From a virus, in IMG/VR virus record IMGVR_UViG_3300025647_000019, positions 1 to 64,000 of that record: a stretch of 64,000 nucleotides of DNA. One strand, 5' to 3'. Below the pieces are notes generated by a model. The model ran no database searches and had not been told where the DNA came from. It saw only the letters and a program-made list of their open reading frames with translations. Within the stretch, counting starts at the first letter, position 1, and the number at the start of each line of letters is the position of its first letter. Positions 1 to 11,975 of this stretch are shown here, in pieces. The position numbers and the translations under genes were made by a program.

Positions 1-559
1 ACTGGTCTGGAGAGATTCGGCAAATGCATGGTCTGGTGAAACCTTATCATTGGTTACAGCACACTCTGGTTTAACTGATCTTCAAACAAGTCCAGAAGAA
101 AATACAGATCATGACGGAAGATATGTTCCAGTATTTTCAGCAGAAACTCCTGCATCCCCTACTCCATATTCTGGAATGTTGTGGTATGATACAGATGAAA
201 CTGCTCCAGCAACAATTGCAAAACAAAATCATAAAAAAATAATATATGTTTCAAATCCAGTTTCTGGAAATAGTTTCCCAGCATTGTCTGTTCCCTTTGA
301 TTGCACAATAACAAGAATAACCCATGTAGTTGATTCTGGAACTTGTGTATTTAATTTACAAGAAAGATCAGAAACAACACCTTGGGTAGCTGGAAACGAT
401 ATATTTACTAGTAGCGAATCTGCAACAACAACAATGTCTGCTTGCACATCTTTTGCAGACGCAACTTTATCAGCAAATACTTGGTTACATTTTTCAGCGA
501 GTTCGGTATCATCATCTCCAACTGGATTATGGATCGGGATAAACTTTACGGAGGATTAA
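1..559 (+). CDS. Tail fibre/RBP adaptor-like protein, 5' truncated by window edge; paralog of 2213..2890
   Basis: Frame open from nt 2 (LVWRDSANAWSGETLSLVTAHSGLTDLQ), matching the paralog; PASP..GMLWYDT motif; ends INFTED. Confidence 0.7.
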   Translation, partial: LVWRDSANAWSGETLSLVTAHSGLTDLQTSPEENTDHDGRYVPVFSAETPASPTPYSGMLWYDTDETAPATIAKQNHKKIIYVSNPVSGNSFPALSVPFDCTITRITHVVDSGTCVFNLQERSETTPWVAGNDIFTSSESATTTMSACTSFADATLSANTWLHFSASSVSSSPTGLWIGINFTED

Positions 560-563
560 AATA

Positions 564-785
564 ATGGCTTATACGACTAATACACAAAGTGCCGCATATC
601 AAAATTATCTTGAACAATTGCAAACCATTTATGGATTGATCAGAACTAATTATGCCCCAATTGTGAATAGAATGAATAAAGAGCAATTAATTCAGTTATA
701 TCAAAACGATCCAATTTTTAAAGAGGTTATTGATATGGCAAGACAAATAAATTCATTAGCAGATAAGATTGGAGTAGATTTATGA
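564..785 (+). CDS. Hypothetical 73 aa protein
   Basis: ORF with GGAGG RBS, tightly packed in the operon. Confidence 0.6.
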   Translation: MAYTTNTQSAAYQNYLEQLQTIYGLIRTNYAPIVNRMNKEQLIQLYQNDPIFKEVIDMARQINSLADKIGVDL

Positions 786-1174
786 TTTCAAATAAGAATT
801 TTTCAAGGAACCCAAATCCTGATGTTGGATCAGAAACCGAATTTGAAAGATGTAATTTTTCTCAGTCTGAGCCAGTCTTTGATGATCCTGATTGGGTTGG
901 AGTTCCAATTTTAACTGGTCAAGGACCATGCATATTTACAAATTGTAATTTGGTTAATTGCGAACCTCCTGCTGGAAGCATAATGATTAAATGCAATACA
1001 ACAATTAGACGAACTAAGGTTCAGACTGATTCGGATGTTTTAACACTTGATGGTGTTGATATCGTGACCCCAATTTATCACGATATAATTTATGGAAGAC
1101 AAACAGATGCTGGTGTGTATGAATATCATCCAACTCCAGTGGAGATTCCGAATAATGATATAGATGAGGTTTAG
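782..1174 (+). CDS. Hypothetical protein with Cys-containing beta-helix-like motifs
   Basis: ATGA-type overlap with previous gene; FERCNF and IFTNCNLVNC motifs. Confidence 0.55.
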   Translation: MISNKNFSRNPNPDVGSETEFERCNFSQSEPVFDDPDWVGVPILTGQGPCIFTNCNLVNCEPPAGSIMIKCNTTIRRTKVQTDSDVLTLDGVDIVTPIYHDIIYGRQTDAGVYEYHPTPVEIPNNDIDEV

Positions 1175-1176
1175 TA

Positions 1177-2205
1177 ATGGCGACAGTCTACGTTAACAAC
1201 CAAGCAACTGGGGGAGCAGATGACGGCAGTTCGGAAGCCGATGGGTTCCTGACCATTGATCAGGCAATGAATTGGGTAACTACTGCTGGCACTGGCCCGC
1301 ACAAGATTTGGGTCAAGGGTGGGACGGACTACACTGAAACCGTGACCATTGACACCGCTGGTTCGTCAAATGGCTGGATAGATGTCGAGGGCTACAGCTC
1401 AACCACGGGAGACGGCGGCAAGTTTACGATTGATGCAGAAAGCTCAAGACCAAATTGTTTAACCATTTCCGGCATCGGTCAAGCTTACTATCGAATAAGG
1501 AACGGAATTTTTGAGAGGGCCACGAACACAGGTGCTGGTTGCAACACACAGAGAATTTTATTTCAGGACTGCGAGGCCAACAATAACGCCGTGGGTGGGT
1601 TTTTCATTGGATATGACTCAGCAATTTACGCCTGTAGTGCAGATGGAAACGGGGGTCGGGGGTTTCAGACTGGCGGGGCGAGAGCATGGGTGGCGTTTTG
1701 CGTTGCGTCGAATAATGGTGATCACGGTTTTATGACAACGAACGTGCTGTTCTGCAAAATGTTGTCTAATGCTGGTTCTGGCAACTATATGGGTGGCGGC
1801 ATCTTTGTCAACAACACTATCGACGGCGATGCCCAGGATACGGATTTCGGAATCACATATGGTGGAATACCACCCGTTTTGATAGCGAACAATATTTTCT
1901 ACGATTGCACGACAGGAATTGATACCACCAATCCTGGTTCATACGAGGTCGTGATCCGCAACAATTTGCTCAACTCCAACACCACTGATTATAACACAAC
2001 CGTGCCTTCATCGGAGCAGGGCTACGACATCACTAGTGCCCCCGACTTCGTAGACGAAGTAAACGGAGACTACCGCCTGAACACAACCAGCCCCGCTCGC
2101 AACGCAGGAACTGATGCATCTGGAACATCTGGCAACGGCATGGATATCGGGGCACATCAATCAGAAGACGAAGGTTCAGGAACCAGAATAGTAATGGCAG
2201 GATAA
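1177..2205 (+). CDS. Right-handed parallel beta-helix protein, putative tail spike/receptor-binding protein 1
   Basis: N-terminal TVYV..G.DDGSS; xNxGxG and NNIF rungs; C-terminal DYRL...SPA.NAG...DIGA. Confidence 0.7.
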   Translation: MATVYVNNQATGGADDGSSEADGFLTIDQAMNWVTTAGTGPHKIWVKGGTDYTETVTIDTAGSSNGWIDVEGYSSTTGDGGKFTIDAESSRPNCLTISGIGQAYYRIRNGIFERATNTGAGCNTQRILFQDCEANNNAVGGFFIGYDSAIYACSADGNGGRGFQTGGARAWVAFCVASNNGDHGFMTTNVLFCKMLSNAGSGNYMGGGIFVNNTIDGDAQDTDFGITYGGIPPVLIANNIFYDCTTGIDTTNPGSYEVVIRNNLLNSNTTDYNTTVPSSEQGYDITSAPDFVDEVNGDYRLNTTSPARNAGTDASGTSGNGMDIGAHQSEDEGSGTRIVMAG

Positions 2206-2212
2206 GGAAAAT

Positions 2213-2890
2213 ATGGGTAATTTAAAAATATATAATGGTTCAGAATGGGTTAATATAGCGGCGGCACATACTCATGATCCTTCCGTCACTGGAAGCATCC
2301 TATCTGGCGGTTCAACAGACGGTCAAGTTCTGGTTTGGAGAGATTCTGCCAACGCTTGGAGTGGGGAAACACTTAATCTTGTAACATCTCACTCTGGTCT
2401 GACAGATTTACAATCAAACCCAGAAGAAAATTCAGACCATGATAATCGATATTTAGCCGCTGTTCAATCTGGTACTCCCACACTTCCAGCTTCACCAGTC
2501 ACTGGTCAATTATGGTATGATACAGATGCAGTTGCAACTGGATCTTCAATAAAACAAACTCATAAAAAAATGTTATATGTAACAAGTCCGGTTGCAGGGG
2601 ATGAATTTCCTCTGATGACAGTTCCATTCAATTGTACAATAACAAGAATTTCATATATGGTGGATACTGGAACATGTGTTTTCAATTTAGAGGAAAGACC
2701 TGAATCTGCTCCATTCACAACTGGAACAAATATATTCGGAAGTGATGAGACTGCATATTCTGCTGTTTCAGCAACAACAACATTCAGTAATGCCACATTA
2801 GATGAAAATGATTGGCTTTACTATTCAGGGGTTTCAGTTTCAGGAACTCCAACAAAATTAGTAATTGGCGTAACTTTTACAGAGGATTGA
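2213..2890 (+). CDS. Tail fibre/RBP adaptor-like protein 2
   Basis: N-terminal GNLKIYNGSEWV; GQVLVW and GQLWYDT fibre motifs; paralogous to 1..559. Confidence 0.7.
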   Translation: MGNLKIYNGSEWVNIAAAHTHDPSVTGSILSGGSTDGQVLVWRDSANAWSGETLNLVTSHSGLTDLQSNPEENSDHDNRYLAAVQSGTPTLPASPVTGQLWYDTDAVATGSSIKQTHKKMLYVTSPVAGDEFPLMTVPFNCTITRISYMVDTGTCVFNLEERPESAPFTTGTNIFGSDETAYSAVSATTTFSNATLDENDWLYYSGVSVSGTPTKLVIGVTFTED

Positions 2891-2895
2891 TATAA

Positions 2896-3939
2896 ATGGC
2901 AACTTATTATGTGGACAATGTAACTGGTGACGATGGAAATAGTGGAACTGGAACCACTGAAGCTTGGGCAACAATTTCTCATGCCGCAAGTGGTCTTTCT
3001 ACTGGCGATCATGTTTACATTAAGGGTGGAACAGATTATGATGAAACTGTAAATGTCAGTGCATATGGGGATTCCAATGCATATAATATTTGGGAGGGAT
3101 ATACAACAACTCCAGGTGATAATGGAAAATTTGTAATACAAGGGTCTGCATATACAAATTGTCTAACATATTCGACAACTTCTAATATTAGAACCACATT
3201 TAGAAATATGGTTTTAAAAGGTGCCCAAGATCACGGTTTAACCATGACAACTGCTTGGGCCCAATCTCGTATGTCTTTTGAAAATTGTGATTTTATTGAT
3301 AATGGAAATTATGGTGTAAGTTCAATAAATAATAATATTGCATTTATTGGATGTAGTTTTACGGGAAATACTGGCGATGGGGTTAGAGTAAATGAAGGTT
3401 ATTTTGTAAGATGCAAATCTCAAAATAATGGTGGACATGGATTTTATTGCGGCCGAGGATCTATTGAATACTGTATTTCAGTTGGGGATTTATATGCAAT
3501 GTACAATGGTAATGGTCCAATAACAAATTGTACGATAGATGGAGTTGATGGGACCACATATTATGGATTACAAATTGCACCTGATGCTGTTTGTATTGGA
3601 TTAAATAATAATGTTTATGGTTGTGATTGGGGAGTGTATAATAATACCTATAATTCGTCATATATTATTCCAATTAATTATGTTGAAGGAAATAACATTA
3701 ATGATTCAATAGTTAGCGGATATTCAAATATATTGCAAAGATATAAAGATTTAAATGTTGACGTTGCTCCAGGATTTACCGATGAAGTTGGTGGAGATTA
3801 TACTTTAGCTTCGGATAGTGAATGTATAAATGCAGGAGTTGATTTTGGTGGATCTGGATCCACAGTTGGAACAGACATCGGAGCGTATCAATCTCAAGAT
3901 GAAGGATCTGGACCTTCTCAAATAATTATAACTGGATAG
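2896..3939 (+). CDS. Right-handed parallel beta-helix protein, putative RBP 2 (paralog of 1177..2205)
   Basis: ATYYVD..TGDDGNSG; IKGGTDY.ETV; DYTL...S.CINAG...DIGAYQSQDEGSG. Confidence 0.7.
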   Translation: MATYYVDNVTGDDGNSGTGTTEAWATISHAASGLSTGDHVYIKGGTDYDETVNVSAYGDSNAYNIWEGYTTTPGDNGKFVIQGSAYTNCLTYSTTSNIRTTFRNMVLKGAQDHGLTMTTAWAQSRMSFENCDFIDNGNYGVSSINNNIAFIGCSFTGNTGDGVRVNEGYFVRCKSQNNGGHGFYCGRGSIEYCISVGDLYAMYNGNGPITNCTIDGVDGTTYYGLQIAPDAVCIGLNNNVYGCDWGVYNNTYNSSYIIPINYVEGNNINDSIVSGYSNILQRYKDLNVDVAPGFTDEVGGDYTLASDSECINAGVDFGGSGSTVGTDIGAYQSQDEGSGPSQIIITG

Positions 3940-3949
3940 GAGAAATCTT

Positions 3950-4366
3950 TTGGGTGTTTTAAAAATATATGATGGTTCAAATTGGGTTGAAGCTTTACCT
4001 TCAACTGTTGGTTTATCCCAATCTATAACTTGGGATACAAAAGCTACAACTTTAAGAGCAACCAGATCTGATGAAAATGTGACCCTTTATTATAATCCAG
4101 TTGTTATGACTGCTGTGAGTGCCCATACGGTTTGTGTTGGAACTTCTCCTTCTGTTACTTGGGAATTGAGATATGGAACTGATAGATCTGATTATACTGG
4201 AGGAACATTATTAGTAAGTGGAACATCAACAAGTACAACTTCAATTGAACACACAGACATTTCAACTTCTCTTCCCGCTGGCAATATGGTTTGGTTAACA
4301 ACAACTGCAACAGGTGGAACCTCTGTTGATGAATTTCATTTCACAATGAGTTATAGCGGAGTTTAA
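3950..4366 (+). CDS. Short adaptor-like protein 3
   Basis: TTG start after AGGAG; N-terminal GVLKIYDGSNWV; C-terminal beta domain weakly similar to adaptors 1 and 2. Confidence 0.6.
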   Translation: MGVLKIYDGSNWVEALPSTVGLSQSITWDTKATTLRATRSDENVTLYYNPVVMTAVSAHTVCVGTSPSVTWELRYGTDRSDYTGGTLLVSGTSTSTTSIEHTDISTSLPAGNMVWLTTTATGGTSVDEFHFTMSYSGV

Positions 4367-4369
4367 TAA

Positions 4370-7300
4370 ATGGCAACAGCAATATCTAATTGGGTTGAAT
4401 TAGCATCAATAAGTGGAAATTTAACTGAAGATTATTATCTTGTTAATGATCTTGATTCTTCTACATCTGGATATTCTGGTATAGGGGATAATTGGCAACC
4501 AATAAGTGGAGCTTTTGGTGGAAGTTTAAATGGATCTGGATATAGTATTTCAGATTTAATTATGACAGGATCTTCAGAAGATCAAAATGGTTTATTTAAA
4601 TATATAAATGGTGGAACAGTTCAAAATTTAGCCATTTTAGATATTAGTCTCCTTTCAACGCACAGTAGAACTGGGGCTATTGCTGGTATAACAAGTTCTT
4701 CTTCAATAATTGAAAATTGTTATGTGACTGGAAAGCTATCAGGTTATACTGAAACTGGTGGTGTTGTTGGATTTGTATGGCAGGGGACAAAAATTTCAAA
4801 TTGCTATTCTAGTGTTGATGTTTTTGGGAGAAATGAATCTGGTAGTGTTGGTGGATTTGTTGGAAATATATCAAATGTAACTGGAAATCAGATCTTTAAT
4901 TGTTTTTGTATTGGTTCTGTTGATGCAACATATGCTCATGGAGGATTTGCTGGTCAAATTGGTGGAGAAAATGTAGAAATATCTGGTTGTGGCTGGTATA
5001 ATTTTTCTGGAAATCCAGATTATGCAATTGGAACTGATACTGGATATACTCTTGATTATGAAGAATCAGATGCATCTGTTTTTTATACACACAATCATCC
5101 AGTTTATACTGGATGGTCATTCACTGGTTCTTCTCCAACTTGGTTTGAAATTTCAGGTTCAACTCCTGTTCTTGCTTCTGATTCTGGATCTGCAATTTGG
5201 AACATTTATAATTGGACTGATCTCGCTGATATAAGTAATAAATTAGATTATACATGTGTTTTACAAAACAATATTTCTTCAGCAACAACTGATTATGTTG
5301 GACTTGGAGATAGCTGGGTTCCAATTTATAATGGAACATCTTATTTTTCAGGAGTATTCAGTGGACAAGGATACACAATTTCAAATTTACGATCAACTTG
5401 GGATTCTGGTTATGGATATTTTGGATTCTTTAGACAATTAGATGGTGCAACAATTGAAAAGGTTGGATTTGAAGATGTTATATTTACTCCAATCCATGCT
5501 CAAGGTGTTGGAGTAGTTGCTGGATATATGGGGACAGATACTACTATTTCAAATTGTTATTGTGAAGGATCATTAACTGGAATGTCATATGCTGGTGGTA
5601 TTGTTGGAACAATTGTTTCATATACAAATTTTATTAATTCATATGCAAATGTAAATGTTCATACAACAACTTCAAATTCCGCTGGATTAATTGGAAGAAT
5701 GCCTGGAAATTATAATGAAATTATTAATTGTTTTGCGGCTGGAGATGCAACATCAGTTGGACAATCAGGTGGACTTATTTCAGAAGGTGGAAACCCTGGA
5801 ACAAATAATATTGAAAATTGTGGATGGTATTCATCAAGTACAACAGAAGCAATTTATGCATGGGCTAATTTGTCGGGAAGTGTAACATATGAAACAACAG
5901 ATATCTCAGATTTCTATTCTCATAATTATGGAGTTTATACTGGTTGGACATTTACTGGCTCAAGTCCAATATGGTTTGAACATGTAGATTCTCTTCCTAC
6001 ATTCGAAACATCTAATTACTGGACCATTTGGAATTGGACAGATATGCAAGATATGAACAATAAACTTTCATACAGTGGATATCTTCAAAACGATTTATCT
6101 TCTGCAACAACTGATTATTCCGGTATTGGAGATGATTGGGAAGCAATAGGTCATACAAATTCTCCAACATATTTTACTGGATATTTTAATGGACAAAATA
6201 ATTCTATTAGAGATTTGGTGTGTTATATGGGTGCGTCAAGGTGGGGATTTTTTGGATCAATTGATACTGGAGCATATGTAGAAAATCTAGCTATTAAGGA
6301 TTCATATTATAGAGATTCAATCGGATTGCAATATTTTGGAATATTTGTTGGAAGATTGGCTGGAGCAGTTAAAAATTGCTATACTCAAAACATACACATT
6401 AAAGGTTATACCAGAGTAGGTGGTTTTGCTGGATACTGTACTGGCACTGCTGATGCTGAAAATTGTTATTCCGATTGTCTTGTATTATCAGATGGGTATT
6501 CTGTTGGTGGATTTGCTGGATATATATCAAATGGAACAAATATTACAAATTGTTTTTCAACAAGTGAAGTTTTAATAACTGGTGGATCTGGAATAAATTT
6601 CGGTGGATTTGCTGGTGAAGATTTTGGTGGCGTTATAACAAATTGTGGTTGGTACTCTTCAACAACAACTGATGCTATATATGCAATTGGAAATACTTCT
6701 GGATCCGTAACCTATGAGACAACAGACAATACTGATTTTTATACTCACAATTATGAATTTTATACTGGTTGGACATTTACTGGTTCTTCTCCTGTATGGT
6801 ATGAAACACAAAATAATTTGCCAACACTTCAATCTTCTTTATATTGGACAGTTCATAATTGGACAGATTTAACAGAACTTGAAAACAAATTGTCATATAG
6901 TGCATACCTTCAAAATAATATTTCATCAGCAACAACTGATTATGTTGGTATAGGAGATGATTTTACTCCAATAGGAAGATCCGATCCATATTTTAATGGT
7001 GTATTTGATGGAGAAGGAAATAGTATTTCTGATATAATAATCAATTATAATTCAAGTGATGTTGGGTTAATTGGAAGAATTATTGGTGGTACAGTTAAAC
7101 ATCTTGGAATAAAAAATATTGATATAACTCAAACATCAAATTCAGACGGTAGAGTTGGTGGCCTAGCTGGTGGTGCTGGTGGATCTTCAACTGTTGAAAA
7201 TTGTTTTATTGAAGGACAAATTGATGCATATGGAAATGCAGTTGGAGGGTTAATTGGTCAAGCATCTTATACAGATGGAGTAACAATTAATAACTGTTAT

Positions 7301-8632
7301 ACAAATGTTAATATTTTAAATGGTGCAACTGGAATTGGTGGAGTTATTGGAATTGTTGGATCATCTGATGTTTCAGTTAATAATACATATACAGTTGGTG
7401 CTGTTACTGGAACAACCCATGTTGGAGCATTTATAGGATTAAGAAATGCATTTGCATCATATTCAAATTGTGGATGGTATAACTTTTCTGGAAATCCAGA
7501 CAGTGGTTTTGGTTCGGCACCAACCGATGATTCAGTAGATACTTGGTCTTCAAATACATTATCAGATTTCTATCCACATAATTACGGGGTTTATTCAGCT
7601 TGGACATTTACAGGTTCTTCTCCTGTATGGTATGAATCATTAACAGCACTCCCAACCCTTACACCATCTACAAATTGGTACATTTATAATTGGACGGACC
7701 TTCAAGATTTAAACAATAAATTATCATATAGTGCTTACTTACAAAACAATATTTCTTCAGCTACAACTGATTATGTTGGTATAGGAGATGATTTTACTCC
7801 AATAGGAGGACTTGACCATGGGCTTTTTTTAGGAATATTCAATGGTAACGATTATACTGTTTCTGATTTAATTATCAATTCAACTTCTGACAGGGTAGGG
7901 TTAATTGGTCAAACCAATGAAACTATTTCTAATGTTGGACTCATTAACCCGAATATCACCACAACAAGTGGAAGATATTGTGGAGGAATTGTTGGATATA
8001 TCGGCACTGGAGGGTATGTTACAAAATGTTTTGTTTCGGGGGGATCAATTACGGCAAACCAGGGTACTGTCGGGGGAATTGCAGGAACAAATTATTCTTC
8101 TTTAAGAATTGATAATTGTTATGCTGATTGTATTGTGAGAGGCCCGGCTAGTGTTGGGGGAATTGTAGGGACTGCTGGGGAATTGCGAAATTGCTATTTT
8201 GCTGGGACTGTACAAAGAACATGGGGTAGTAATTCAACATTTGGGGGAATAGTTGGTACATTAAATTATAACAATATGTATAACTGTTTTTCGGTTGGAG
8301 ATATTGATGGTGGGAGTTATCCAGATCGATGTGGTGGAATTGCTGGAACATTTGTAGGAGCATCATTTATACACTGTGGTTGGTATTCTAGTTCTACAAC
8401 AGATGCTGTTTATGCATTAGGTTCAAGTTCAGGATCCGTAACCTACGAAACAACAACTGAATCCGACTTTTATGATTCAGGATATGGACCTTATACTGGA
8501 GGATCGTACACATGGGATTTCTCAACTCCAATTTGGTATGAATGGACAAACGATCTTCCAAAGTTTACAGAACAAGGAATTATTACAGGGCCGATATATT
8601 TAGAATATGCAAGGATATTAACAATTTCATAA
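4370..8632 (+). CDS. 1420 aa GLUG-motif beta-helix repeat protein (five ~280 aa units), putative adhesin/RBP
   Basis: Many GGxxG...I.NCY motifs; five units starting xNWxDL...NKL. Confidence 0.75.
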   Translation: MATAISNWVELASISGNLTEDYYLVNDLDSSTSGYSGIGDNWQPISGAFGGSLNGSGYSISDLIMTGSSEDQNGLFKYINGGTVQNLAILDISLLSTHSRTGAIAGITSSSSIIENCYVTGKLSGYTETGGVVGFVWQGTKISNCYSSVDVFGRNESGSVGGFVGNISNVTGNQIFNCFCIGSVDATYAHGGFAGQIGGENVEISGCGWYNFSGNPDYAIGTDTGYTLDYEESDASVFYTHNHPVYTGWSFTGSSPTWFEISGSTPVLASDSGSAIWNIYNWTDLADISNKLDYTCVLQNNISSATTDYVGLGDSWVPIYNGTSYFSGVFSGQGYTISNLRSTWDSGYGYFGFFRQLDGATIEKVGFEDVIFTPIHAQGVGVVAGYMGTDTTISNCYCEGSLTGMSYAGGIVGTIVSYTNFINSYANVNVHTTTSNSAGLIGRMPGNYNEIINCFAAGDATSVGQSGGLISEGGNPGTNNIENCGWYSSSTTEAIYAWANLSGSVTYETTDISDFYSHNYGVYTGWTFTGSSPIWFEHVDSLPTFETSNYWTIWNWTDMQDMNNKLSYSGYLQNDLSSATTDYSGIGDDWEAIGHTNSPTYFTGYFNGQNNSIRDLVCYMGASRWGFFGSIDTGAYVENLAIKDSYYRDSIGLQYFGIFVGRLAGAVKNCYTQNIHIKGYTRVGGFAGYCTGTADAENCYSDCLVLSDGYSVGGFAGYISNGTNITNCFSTSEVLITGGSGINFGGFAGEDFGGVITNCGWYSSTTTDAIYAIGNTSGSVTYETTDNTDFYTHNYEFYTGWTFTGSSPVWYETQNNLPTLQSSLYWTVHNWTDLTELENKLSYSAYLQNNISSATTDYVGIGDDFTPIGRSDPYFNGVFDGEGNSISDIIINYNSSDVGLIGRIIGGTVKHLGIKNIDITQTSNSDGRVGGLAGGAGGSSTVENCFIEGQIDAYGNAVGGLIGQASYTDGVTINNCYTNVNILNGATGIGGVIGIVGSSDVSVNNTYTVGAVTGTTHVGAFIGLRNAFASYSNCGWYNFSGNPDSGFGSAPTDDSVDTWSSNTLSDFYPHNYGVYSAWTFTGSSPVWYESLTALPTLTPSTNWYIYNWTDLQDLNNKLSYSAYLQNNISSATTDYVGIGDDFTPIGGLDHGLFLGIFNGNDYTVSDLIINSTSDRVGLIGQTNETISNVGLINPNITTTSGRYCGGIVGYIGTGGYVTKCFVSGGSITANQGTVGGIAGTNYSSLRIDNCYADCIVRGPASVGGIVGTAGELRNCYFAGTVQRTWGSNSTFGGIVGTLNYNNMYNCFSVGDIDGGSYPDRCGGIAGTFVGASFIHCGWYSSSTTDAVYALGSSSGSVTYETTTESDFYDSGYGPYTGGSYTWDFSTPIWYEWTNDLPKFTEQGIITGPIYLEYARILTIS
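6932..7807 (+). repeat. 45 bp identical direct repeat (6932..6976 and 7763..7807) in GLUG unit junctions
   Basis: acaactgattatgttggtataggagatgattttactccaatagga occurs twice. Confidence 0.9.
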
Positions 8633-8642
8633 AGGAGAAAAA

Positions 8643-9116
8643 ATGAATTTAGTAGCTTACTTTACATCTGGTGGAACTCCAGCAACTGGACTTTCACCAA
8701 CCATTTCTATTTGGGGAGTTGATGGAACTTCTTATGGAAGTGGTTTATCAATGTCTGAAGTTGCTGGTGGTTTTTATAATTACAATTACACTGGTTACGA
8801 TTATACCGTTGATTATGTTTTCAGAGCATATGAATCTTCACTACCAACAGCAGAACAATATGTTGTTGCGACAAACGAAGCAGATTCAATGAACACACAA
8901 GGAATAACAAAACAAATCCTTGGATTGAGCCAAGGAAACTTCGTTATGAAAAATCAAACATATGATGCAAATGGAAGACTTTTGACTTCAAATATGTATA
9001 CATATGAGAATGCGGCTGATGCTAATTCTGAAACAAATCCAATTCATTCATATTATATAGTTTCAACATATGATGTGAATGGAAACTTGACAAATTATAA
9101 AGTTACAGAAATCTAA
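8643..9116 (+). CDS. Hypothetical, probable virion protein
   Basis: AAGGAG RBS; context at the end of the fibre module. Confidence 0.55.
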   Translation: MNLVAYFTSGGTPATGLSPTISIWGVDGTSYGSGLSMSEVAGGFYNYNYTGYDYTVDYVFRAYESSLPTAEQYVVATNEADSMNTQGITKQILGLSQGNFVMKNQTYDANGRLLTSNMYTYENAADANSETNPIHSYYIVSTYDVNGNLTNYKVTEI

Positions 9117-9118
9117 TC

Positions 9119-9676
9119 ATGGCTTTAAATCCACATGCAGTTAATCTTGCGACAAAAGGAAGATTAGGAGTTGCAACTGTAACTGCTACTCGTGGAATTA
9201 TACCAGAAGTAGATCCAACAAATCCAGATAGAAATTTTTGCGATTATCCACATGCTGTTAATGTGGCAACCAAAGGTAATTTGTCCGATGCTCATATAAC
9301 TGGTGTTAAGGGTAAGATTCCAAAGATTTGCGACCTTACGCCTCCAATTCCAGGATATTGTGATTATCCTCACGCAGTTAAATTGGCAACAATGGGAAGA
9401 CTTGGCGCAACGGTTGGAACTGCAACAAGAGGTCGAGTATTAAGAATCTGTATTGAAGAATTCCCAGTAAGAACCACTGGGCCTGGAAGGCGTGGGTTCA
9501 GAAAAGAAGAAGAGAAAAAGAAATGTATTCGAATTACAGTATTTGCTTATGGTGAAAAGTTTGTATCTGAACATTGTGTTGAAAAGGATAGAATCGTTAA
9601 AGCTTCAGATGTTGAAGTCAGAGATATTGGAAATAAAAAGATTTCCATAAAATTAAAAGGAATTAAAAAATCATGA
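9119..9676 (+). CDS. Hypothetical protein with three PHAVxxATxG repeats
   Basis: Repeats visible in translation. Confidence 0.55.
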   Translation: MALNPHAVNLATKGRLGVATVTATRGIIPEVDPTNPDRNFCDYPHAVNVATKGNLSDAHITGVKGKIPKICDLTPPIPGYCDYPHAVKLATMGRLGATVGTATRGRVLRICIEEFPVRTTGPGRRGFRKEEEKKKCIRITVFAYGEKFVSEHCVEKDRIVKASDVEVRDIGNKKISIKLKGIKKS

Positions 9677-10104
9677 GAGAAGCTATAAAAGTGGCGTTGA
9701 TTAGTGCAATTGTATTTCTGATAGTTTCAGTTTTCGCAAACTGCTACGCACAATCATATGATATGGATCCAGAATATTATTTAAAAAATGAAAAACACTC
9801 TGGAAATTTCATTGCCTTTTCCAATATGGATTTGTGTGGAACATCATTGGGAAAGTTTTGTAATTTTAGTTTTCCAAACGAAGACCATAGGTCACATGAC
9901 CACACCTTTGTCATAAATGATCATGACCTAACCATTTATTGCTTTCAAAGAGACTTCGACAATGTTCTCAGATTGGTAAGTAGGCGTTATGGATTTTTCG
10001 ATGATTCATTTAATTACATAATAATTGAAGGAAAGGTTTACACAAAAGTAGAAGATAAAACATCCTTTCCAGGATGTCCAGTTCCATTGGGCTCAAAAAA
10101 ATAA
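9673..10104 (+). CDS. Secreted hypothetical protein
   Basis: Hydrophobic N-terminus ending ANCYA/Q. Confidence 0.55.
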   Translation: MREAIKVALISAIVFLIVSVFANCYAQSYDMDPEYYLKNEKHSGNFIAFSNMDLCGTSLGKFCNFSFPNEDHRSHDHTFVINDHDLTIYCFQRDFDNVLRLVSRRYGFFDDSFNYIIIEGKVYTKVEDKTSFPGCPVPLGSKK

Positions 10105-10110
10105 AAATTC

Positions 10111-10142
10111 TTGACACTCATTTTATTTTGGTGTATATTTAT
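10111..10142 (+). promoter_or_regulatory. Sigma70-like promoter of hsp20, overlapping an ATATTTAT motif
   Basis: TTGACA 10111-16, 17 nt spacer, TATATT 10134-39. Confidence 0.65.
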
Positions 10143-10153
10143 TCGTGATAGAG

Positions 10154-10759
10154 CAAATCGCCTGTCCAATTAGATCAATTTGACTAACAGAAAGGAGCCA
10201 ATCATGGCACACAAAAGTCTAATTCAATGGGTAAACACATTTAACACTTCATCAACCTCTGGAGAACCAACTTGGTATTATTGGGACACTACCAATCTTC
10301 CAGTAGCAAATGACTATTTTCCAAGGTCTATTGAGAAGCAAATTGACGAGGCTTTCAATAAGCTTTGGGCAAATCGAAGCAATCCAATTATCAAGGATGA
10401 TGCAAAGCTTCCGAAGACGAACATCTATGAAGATGAAAGTGGATTGGTTATTCAAGCATTCGTTCCGTTTGTTCAGCCAGACGGAGATGAACTTAAGGTT
10501 ATTGTTGATCCTACGACAAATTCTATCAAGATTGAAGTCGAAGCACATCAACCAAAAGAAAAGCGAGAATACTATTTGAATGAAGTCAGCAGAACATCAT
10601 TCAAGAGGTCTTTCGCAATTGATAAAAAGTTCGACACAGATATTGCTACTTGCGATCACAAGGATGGAATTTTAACAATCAAGGTTCCATTTGAAGATGG
10701 AAGCAAAAAGCATACAATTTTTGAAATTACAAATGACTAAAAAATAGACAGGCGATTTG
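10154..10759. repeat. 13 bp perfect inverted repeat flanking hsp20 (10154..10166 and 10747..10759)
   Basis: CAAATCGCCTGTC / GACAGGCGATTTG. Confidence 0.9.
10204..10740 (+). CDS. Small heat-shock protein (Hsp20/alpha-crystallin family)
   Basis: P.TNIYE..; SFKRSF; DGILTIKVP; AAGGAG RBS before ATG 10204. Confidence 0.85.
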   Translation: MAHKSLIQWVNTFNTSSTSGEPTWYYWDTTNLPVANDYFPRSIEKQIDEAFNKLWANRSNPIIKDDAKLPKTNIYEDESGLVIQAFVPFVQPDGDELKVIVDPTTNSIKIEVEAHQPKEKREYYLNEVSRTSFKRSFAIDKKFDTDIATCDHKDGILTIKVPFEDGSKKHTIFEITND

Positions 10760-10764
10760 ACTCA

Positions 10765-10798
10765 GGGGCTTGCATTCCGCAGGCCCCATATTTTTTTG
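10765..10798 (+). terminator. Intrinsic terminator
   Basis: GGGGCTTGC-attcc-GCAGGCCCC followed by T-run. Confidence 0.75.
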
Positions 10799-11769: not shown

Positions 11770-11975
11770 ATAAGGTGAATACAATTTCTAGACTCTGTGA
11801 TTTAACAGCAAAGGTTGCCGAATTTTATGATTGGACAAAGCAAGCGGATTGCTTTTGTGAAGTTTCTGTTTTTGAACACATGAGTACCCATGATGATATT
11901 ATCGCATTTATTGAAACTGCGGTAAAGGAAAAGATTGAACGTGAAAGGGATGATCCTTTTCACGTTCGAATGTGA
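11766..11975 (+). CDS. Hypothetical protein
   Basis: GTGA overlap with previous gene. Confidence 0.55.
   Translation: MNKVNTISRLCDLTAKVAEFYDWTKQADCFCEVSVFEHMSTHDDIIAFIETAVKEKIERERDDPFHVRM

Follow-up and report, generated by a model that had tools for sequence, protein, structure and literature searches.

Fibre and enzyme gene cassettes of an uncultured T4-superfamily myovirus: a candidate branched, serially assembled receptor-binding fibre

A phage's host range is set by its receptor-binding proteins (RBPs), and to our knowledge the mounting of several such proteins on one virion has been described for only a few cultured phages. In T2-type fibres, gp38 sits on the tip of gp37. The long tail fibre of T4 has the composition (gp34)3-gp35-(gp36)3-(gp37)3 (bioRxiv 10.64898/2026.03.06.709160). 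In KP32, K11 and KP34, which are podophages of Klebsiella, an anchorless second enzymatic RBP is held on the primary RBP by a short conserved peptide, the deletion of which abolishes incorporation; the KP32-type docking peptide comprises 29 residues at the N-terminus of RBP2 and binds the T4 gp10-like branching domain of RBP1 (PMC13352976). In the solved baseplate tripod of Lactococcus phage Tuc2009, BppU contributes a C-terminal hairpin that completes BppA's beta-sandwich (PMC4742702). Here, positions 1–8632 were analysed in a 64,000-nucleotide stretch of viral DNA (positions 1–64,000 of IMG/VR record IMGVR_UViG_3300025647_000019; hereafter the window), in which the genes for three short fibre proteins, A1, A2 and A3 (termed adaptors in a first-pass annotation of this DNA), alternate with genes for two lyase-like beta-helix proteins and one large repeat protein. 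The best reading of this system is as a variant of the branched or serial RBP systems represented by the KP32-type phages, the T4 long tail fibre and Tuc2009.

Domain content, folds, paralogy, synteny and co-variation lead us to propose that the region encodes a branched, serially assembled, hetero-oligomeric multi-enzyme receptor-binding fibre with two kinds of peptide joint, a reading whose chances we put at about even; the gene arrangement itself is judged to be real and non-random. A1, A2, A3 and probably P0007, a long fibre protein described below, each end in an unnamed C-terminal jelly-roll domain, which is named Cdom here. The product encoded just downstream would be the cargo, namely, a lyase-like beta-helix (BH) protein for A1 and A2 (BH1 and BH2, respectively) and a GLUG-repeat protein for A3. 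In the first joint, enzyme to fibre, which we regard as probable, cargo lacking an N-terminal anchor would dock on Cdom by beta-sheet augmentation through a flexible linker and a hydrophobic C-terminal strand of 5–6 residues, with one enzyme per Cdom protomer. In the second joint, fibre to fibre, for which the chances come close to even without exceeding it, an N-terminal strand pair, M-x-x-LKIY-x-G-x-x-W (the plug), would complete the motif of another fibre protein by supplying the missing half of ..P..G.LWYDT (the socket half), which stands just before Cdom in A1, A2 and P0007. Short trimers would thus stack in gene order on the virion, and a Cdom with its enzyme would hang off every node. 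The enzyme-to-fibre joint is better supported than the fibre-to-fibre joint.

The locus resembles the KP32-type systems in its adjacent gene pairs, its anchorless secondary enzyme and a short conserved terminal peptide, which here is a candidate; the KP32-type docking peptide is an example of a short peptide at a terminus being enough to mount an RBP (PMC13352976). In contrast to the KP32-type arrangement, the peptide proposed here is C-terminal, with 5–6 residues following a Gly linker; a C-terminal jelly roll is the candidate socket, the cargo has the look of a monomer, and three or four copies of the unit are present. No Pfam or PHROG match to the T4 gp10-like branching domain was found in A1–A3 or P0007, although a similar fold could escape such matching. 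The likeness to Tuc2009, a solved precedent from a phage adsorption device for strand complementation in trans, would lie in the C-terminal extension of one virion protein completing a beta-sheet of a carbohydrate-binding accessory protein; however, the folds and families are different, the Tuc2009 arrangement is a single joint rather than a chain, and no sequence relation to the window proteins was found. As in the T4 and T2 fibres, consecutive genes would correspond to consecutive fibre segments, and the protein encoded just after a fibre gene would bind the C-terminal tip of that fibre. The present phage also has a T4-like head, sheath and hub, and homology to gp34–38 was not detected with Pfam or PHROG at the thresholds used. 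The joints proposed here differ from those of T4 in being split hairpin motifs between short links that each carry a side domain. The same motif occurs in the single-chain fibres L001, L002 and P0012, whereas its halves lie on different proteins in the window.

Judged by their sequences, A1, A2 and A3 are short fibre proteins, and their features are as follows.

2..559, + strand: A1, short fibre protein whose 5' part is cut off at the contig start (full-length form, P0002, 224 aa)
149..196, + strand: A1 socket half PASPTPYSGMLWYDTD, string found in the translation
218..556, + strand: A1 Cdom, C-terminal jelly roll (hmmsearch E 6e-44)
2213..2890, + strand: A2, short fibre protein of 225 aa (= P0001), from open reading frame (ORF) and model
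2213..2251, + strand: A2 plug MGNLKIYNGSEWV, modelled as a hairpin at residues 5–14
2483..2527, + strand: A2 socket half LPASPVTGQLWYDTD, unpaired in the monomer model (pLDDT about 55)
2552..2887, + strand: A2 Cdom, modelled as an 8-stranded jelly roll (pLDDT about 98; hmmsearch E 6e-46)
3950..4366, + strand: A3, 138 aa, TTG start, plug and divergent Cdom, no socket (ORF and profile comparison)
3950..3988, + strand: A3 plug MGVLKIYDGSNWV, sequence shared with A2
4010..4357, + strand: A3 divergent Cdom (hhalign probability 98.2%, E 3.5e-14)

A1 and A2 are composed of a plug, a His-rich shaft, an internal socket half (PASP..G.LWYDT) and Cdom, and A3 of a plug and Cdom, like the 135-aa protein P0041. 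The N-terminus of A1 lies off the contig; P0002, which has an identical tail, starts with the plug MALLKIYDGTQWI. The TTG start of A3 is the start also used for the cluster representative P0193. A1 and A2 are a paralog pair. A2 and A3 are equal at 10 of their first 13 residues and at 87% of 38 nt, and BLAST aligns nothing else between them. Across the 94-kb contig from which the window derives, A2 and A3 are the only proteins with the plug and A1 and A2 the only ones with the socket half, features that are judged to exceed chance. In neither of these two window proteins is the socket half terminal; because it is followed by a linker of ~12 residues and then by Cdom, its placement suggests a branch point. 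No sequence relatives of A1, A2 or the L001 fibre were found in the Protein Data Bank (PDB), no match of A1, A2 or A3 to Mtd_N (PF18454) was obtained at E <= 0.1, and a metagenome scan with the adaptor alignment returned distant shaft-motif matches only. A role of A1–A3 as tail fibre assembly chaperones was ruled out, as fibre shafts are present and Cdom is found at the tip of 1000-aa fibres. A hairpin formed in cis by LWYDT and the first Cdom strand (KKMLYV) was likewise considered and is unsupported, LWYDT being unpaired in the A2 model.

The first-pass annotation had stated that A1 and A2 carry PASP..G.LWYDT without the G.LKIY.G..W that follows it elsewhere, that this missing half is the N-terminus of the next adaptor (at 2213 and 3950), and that A3 has the N-terminal half and no LWYDT; all three statements were confirmed, with MGNLKIYNGSEWV and MGVLKIYDGSNWV found at the two starts. 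Its division of the region into three modules of one adaptor and one beta-helix protein holds insofar as every string that it quoted is present where it was placed, but two small genes of module 1, for proteins of 73 and 130 aa, had been missed and the third partner is not a beta-helix paralog. The description of all three beta-helix partners as ending in a linker and a hydrophobic strand applies to BH1 (RIVMAG) and BH2 (QIIITG); the third partner, in which RILTIS is present, is the GLUG protein.

The Cdom profile was built from 110 sequences. A phmmer search of 1.84 billion cluster representatives with A2 returned 560 relatives; nearly all of the best 150 of these match only A2 residues ~110–225, almost invariably as the very last part of a protein of 123–2241 aa, and many of the Cdom proteins among the matches listed are obvious fibres with His-x-His or collagen shafts. 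In an AlphaFold2 model of A2 based on the 110-sequence alignment, Cdom is predicted as an eight-stranded jelly roll, and the rest of the protein is poorly defined except for the short N-terminal hairpin. Structure searches with Cdom retrieved phage knob, cement and baseplate domains and carbohydrate-binding modules (CBMs) with Z values of 7–9.7; as modelled, Cdom is a generic jelly roll without a decisive structural relative. No Pfam model exists for it, and the ESM Atlas returned unnamed viral clusters only. Even in fibres that differ greatly, Cdom sequences keep 35–48% identity, and T, G, T, N, R and G positions are nearly invariant among them. A profile of the five relatives of A3 matched the Cdom profile over A3 residues 21–136, by which the C-terminal part of A3 is identified as homologous to Cdom. 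Cdom proteins with Mtd_N N-termini also exist, such as P0006 (Mtd_N match 1.3e-8), as do Atlas clusters in which Mtd_N reaches 47–93%.

The candidate enzymes and their tails are the following.

1177..2205, + strand: BH1, 342-aa right-handed beta-helix, no N-terminal anchor, ends RIVMAG
2179..2202, + strand: BH1 C-terminal tail GTRIVMAG, from family tail comparison
2896..3939, + strand: BH2, 347-aa beta-helix resembling monomeric polysaccharide lyases, ends QIIITG
3913..3936, + strand: BH2 C-terminal tail PSQIIITG (model residues 333–347 pLDDT below 50)

BH1 and BH2 are paralogous (34% identity, E 4e-40). The model of BH2 (pTM 0.85) is a parallel right-handed beta-helix with stacked short strands from residue 3 to about residue 304, and its last 15 residues are disordered. 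The closest solved structures in a Foldseek search were the pectate lyase Pel9A (E 1e-6, TMq 0.55), PL6 alginate lyases and pectin methylesterases; the BH proteins thus look like monomeric polysaccharide lyases, their enzymatic activity being suggested by the modelled fold. The homologs P0155 and P0159 score above the cut-off of Pfam Beta_helix (PF13229), and BH1 and BH2 give a weak DUF5123 match or none. The family consists of stand-alone proteins of ~320–460 aa, nearly all of the 36 listed members starting with MATYYVD or a close variant, and a tailspike-type N-terminal anchor ahead of the beta-helix is absent from the BH2 model, in which the helix begins at residue 3, and from these 36 members. 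One form of C-terminus recurs in the family: DIGA.QS.DAG, a Gly- or Ala-rich linker and a short hydrophobic stretch with G or S as its last residue (for example, KVVITG, TRKIIIG and GRVILTS; tail pattern [KR][IV][IV][IL]TG). Because 16 of the 36 listed relatives carry this ending, the linker and hydrophobic strand are judged to be a recurrent trait of the BH family rather than a coincidence.

To compare neighbourhoods, 37 IMG/VR loci with BH homologs, several of them duplicates, were fetched and every ORF was scored with hidden Markov models (HMMs) of Cdom and BH; one further locus, L064, came from a separate Cdom-centred scan. Wherever the BH protein has a ..[IV][IV][IL]T[GS] tail (L012/13, L014/19, L020, L064 and the window), a Cdom fibre gene lies immediately upstream, and L012/13 mirrors the four-gene cassette of the window (Cdom fibre, 71 aa, 129 aa, BH). 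Among the fetched loci, BH homologs with ..NKR[AG]GKQ ends have a different neighbourhood with no Cdom, and BH proteins ending in ..GGETSHVFAV follow fibres whose C-terminal domain is a distant relative of Cdom (hhalign 85%, E 7e-6, same register). A 453-aa protein of L065, encoded two genes after a Cdom gene, ends in ..EPRVILAG; it has no match to the BH model at an E limit of 1e-2 and matches PHROG tail-protein families (phrog_5795). Among the 1346 ORFs of 100 aa or longer in the fetched DNA as a whole, the tail pattern closes 12, and 11 of these 12 lie within 2.5 kb downstream of a Cdom ORF. Because the adjacency is kept over deep divergence, the partners show matched divergence and the L065 cargo is unrelated, a physical pairing of Cdom and tail is proposed as the best reading of the comparative data.

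The second tail type, ..(LLMP)NKR[AG]GKQ, belongs to BH homologs of L015, L016/17, L022, L024 and L028, on contigs of ~10–57 kb, the genes for which sit between a ~500-aa gene with a ~140-aa gene and a large fibre gene. This tail may be another docking peptide with another partner.

The third candidate cargo is described by two features.

4370..8632, + strand: 1420-aa GLUG/Peptidase_M26_N-like protein with five repeats of ~275 aa, candidate third cargo, ends RILTIS
8576..8629, + strand: C-terminal tail of the GLUG protein, GIITGPIYLEYARILTIS, of uncertain relation to the BH tails

The Pfam scores of this protein are 47.4 bits for Glug (cut-off 20.5) and 43.7 bits for Peptidase_M26_N (cut-off 27.7). 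It does not match the strict tail pattern, and the part of its tail (..QGIITGPIYLEYARILTIS) most like the BH tails is not RILTIS but QGIITG, which stands 14 residues from the end.

The fibre-to-fibre joint is suggested by the way in which a single motif is divided between genes. The unbroken motif, ..P..G.LWYDT..G.LKI[YW].G..W, occurs in L001 (PASPVDGQLWYDTDEARSGVTGALKIWNALTTQWV), L002 and P0012, in the last of which it stands just before Cdom. IMG/VR pattern scans for genes starting with M-x-x-LK[IV][YW]-x-G-x-x-W matched almost only fibre genes, and four unrelated contigs (L050, L053, L055 and L079, with L080 coming close) have a preceding gene that terminates directly behind the motif's first half.

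L050 junction: upstream gene ends ..PVSPTKGDIWFDTTA (stop), next gene starts MADLKIYNGTSWV
L053 junction 1: upstream gene carries ..GDIWFVSDE.., next gene starts MPTTDVSVFDGSEWV
L053 junction 2: upstream gene ends ..AGDFFIETS (stop), next gene starts MSNLKVYDGTSWI
L055 junction: upstream gene ends ..YYAGDLWIQPA (stop), next gene starts MSNLKIY
L079 junction: upstream gene ends ..TGDIWIQI (stop), next gene starts MAQLKVWNGSAWV

In phages other than the present one, genes ending in ..GDIWFDTTA are followed by a gene starting with MADLKIY. The downstream gene starts at an ATG of its own and in another reading frame in L050, L053 and L055, and a ribosome-binding site is present in L050 and L053. 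Genes cut exactly at the hairpin turn appear hard to explain unless the two halves meet in trans.

Two of these loci have further features. Positions 3255–5508 of L053 hold a three-gene chain, in which gene 1 carries its motif half near the end, gene 2 starts ..VSVFDGSEWV and ends with the motif half listed for junction 2, and gene 3 ends in a Pfam Phage_tail_C tip. At positions 11930–13829 of L055, a 116-aa collagen-like stub ending in ..GDLWIQPA lies 1 nt upstream of a 516-aa protein that bears a plug and an esterase/Peptidase_S9-like domain; this protein looks like an enzyme mounted by an N-terminal plug.

A further candidate link is P0007, a 1154-aa fibre with 49% identity to A2 residues 16–225 that carries ..YAGMFWLDTG and Cdom behind a different N-terminus without a plug. 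The longest contig of each of P0007, the BH paralog P0165, A2, BH2 and a variant of A1 is 153,539 bp, and from these equal lengths P0007 is probably on the same longer contig as A2 and BH2, upstream of the window. If they are on one contig, there is a cassette 0, and the first link has only a socket, the middle links have both halves and the last has only a plug. In that case three sockets (A0, which is P0007, A1 and A2) match three plugs (A1, A2 and A3), because P0007 adds a socket without a plug.

Several observations weigh against one or the other joint. The GLUG tail bears a weak resemblance to the tails of the BH proteins. The single ORF with the tail pattern and no Cdom gene nearby (L069, 8296..9591) encodes a 431-aa fibre-like protein ending in ..AGAYRVVITG without a Gly linker, the strand of which may belong to the protein's own fold; no clear tail is found on the next gene in two of the four Cdom-centred loci (L066 and L067); and the co-variation of tail and Cdom is partly phylogenetic, since BH proteins that share a tail are most closely related to one another. 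As for the fibre joint, socket halves without a visible partner occur in P0007 and in P0131, in the latter of which H..LTD...DHD.RY...P..G.LW[YF]D is repeated twice in one chain, each unit being followed by collagen repeats and by no second half; a viral scan with P0131 found nothing. Only ~5 of the ~15 plug-bearing fibre genes found in IMG/VR follow a socket-ended gene, about two thirds following genes without a socket. Relatives with a Cdom and BH pair have other N-termini and single cassettes. The proposal of the first-pass annotation that the adaptors join by strand complementation is therefore left plausible, supported by the junctions split exactly at the hairpin and by the matching counts once P0007 is included, and opposed by the partnerless sockets and by the plug-bearing fibres after socketless genes. 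Its other proposal, that each C-terminal domain captures one RBP tail, gains good comparative support from adjacency, from the co-variation of tail and C-terminal domain and from the same tail on unrelated cargo, and it is weakened by the GLUG protein and by the L069, L066 and L067 exceptions.

The same facts can be read as parallel docking, in which the LKIY strand would be a generic anchor that attaches A1, A2 and A3 independently to one kind of site on a baseplate or scaffold fibre, and LWYDT would be the end of a shaft repeat that binds nothing; Cdom could still hold the enzymes. A conserved N-terminus with a variable C-terminus is the usual rule for phage RBPs, M..LK[IV][YW].G..W starts many unrelated fibres after socketless genes (L054, L059, L049, L070–L078), and the uncompleted repeats of P0131 and the half motif of the plugless P0007 fit well with this account. 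It is nevertheless considered unlikely, as no other socket-like sequence lies within the visible 94 kb, socket and plug numbers agree exactly with P0007 included, and several phages cut their genes precisely between the halves, which is hard to explain if the halves never meet.

The role of Cdom in holding enzymes is what a second explanation disputes: Cdom would be a receptor-binding tip only, the BH and GLUG proteins would be free lysis or depolymerase enzymes or attached elsewhere, and the tail would serve folding, capping or another partner, such as the 73-aa and 130-aa pair. Cdom does sit at the distal end of long fibres and resembles distal knobs and CBMs (the C-terminus of the phage 7-7-1 tail fibre, CBM36, CBM35, CBM6 and discoidin, at the Z values given above), and the 73-aa and 130-aa genes accompany BH genes even where no Cdom gene is seen (L025 and L021). 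Against this stand the conservation of Cdom, which is unusual for a receptor-binding tip, the lack of any other anchor in the BH proteins, and the correspondence of tail type with Cdom type, which extends to an unrelated cargo protein; we regard this explanation as improbable. Common descent through tandem duplication of a fibre and enzyme cassette, with the shared ends as recombination points of no assembly role, would account for the A1/A2 and BH1/BH2 paralog pairs, for the break of the contig inside a stretch common to P0007, A1 and A2, and for the location of BH1 in a more GC-rich stretch. A2 and A3, however, have both retained the plug even though the remainder of the two proteins cannot be aligned by BLAST, and the same tails and junctions recur in unrelated phages, such that descent by itself is a very improbable explanation.

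The proposed branched, serial fibre also has a wider form, which we put forward tentatively and with the odds somewhat against it: Cdom and the Gly-linker strand may be a general, portable socket–peptide pair with matched specificity types in many uncultured phages, by which anchorless monomeric enzymes are hung on fibre tips, and its combination here with split-hairpin joints may allow a fibre to be lengthened cassette by cassette, each node adding an enzyme or adhesin. If this is true, a C-terminal strand of 5–6 residues suffices to mount a lyase-like enzyme and an N-terminal plug of 13 residues to add a fibre link, which would explain how uncultured aquatic phages acquire and exchange specificities in single-cassette steps. 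A large unnamed domain family, with its 560 relatives among cluster representatives, would receive a name and a role, and very small connector tags would become available for mounting proteins on phage fibres in the laboratory.

The two small genes of module 1 are as follows.

564..785, + strand: 73-aa protein, helical by inspection (39% identity to L012:7400-7612), conserved upstream of BH genes
782..1174, + strand: 130-aa Cys-rich protein, CNF..CNL.NCE.PPGS..CN (43% identity to L012, 38% to L025, 29% to L021), directly upstream of BH genes

In L012/13 and L025, BH homologs are likewise preceded by both genes, and L021 has the 130-aa type alone. The two proteins may be BH-specific assembly factors.

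The 64-kb window is the first part of a single contig of 93,964 bp, the ends of which do not join, so that A1 is not restored by joining them. PHROG matches on the contig include the large terminase, portal, major head protein, sheath, baseplate hub and T4-type replication genes, and Microcystis phage Mel-JY01 and Flavobacterium phage immuto have the closest capsid proteins (each 37% identity). Because of these head, sheath, hub and replication matches and the low capsid identity to the nearest phages, the source, an aquatic phage, is identified from its genes as an uncultured, distant myovirus of the T4 superfamily. In megablast and tblastn searches of 50,697 records of cultured and deposited phages, the region 1–8632, A2 and BH2 had no match, and the N-terminus of the GLUG protein had one weak match, in a Bacillus phage; no plug-type start was found in Flavobacterium phage immuto.

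Positions 1–10,104 form a tightly packed row of genes on the + strand with overlapping or few-base junctions, at which Shine-Dalgarno-like sequences are found, and no convincing promoter or terminator was found inside this interval; the region 1–8632 belongs to one late operon. The contig start falls within a stretch common to A1 and A2 (1–114 versus 2330–2442, 74% nt identity), shared at the protein level with P0007 as well, and the assembly probably broke at this shared repeat. The GC content is 41% in positions 1–2000 of the window, which hold BH1, versus 34–38% over the next 6 kb. The same gene row encodes, at 9119–9676, a 185-aa protein without a family match that contains three copies of ..YPHAV[NK][LV]AT[KM]G.L.. 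followed by a basic C-terminal part. The fibre gene row ends at an hsp20-like gene (10180..10740, within 10111–10787), which carries a promoter-like site of its own (TTGACA-17-TATATT) together with a strong terminator-like hairpin.

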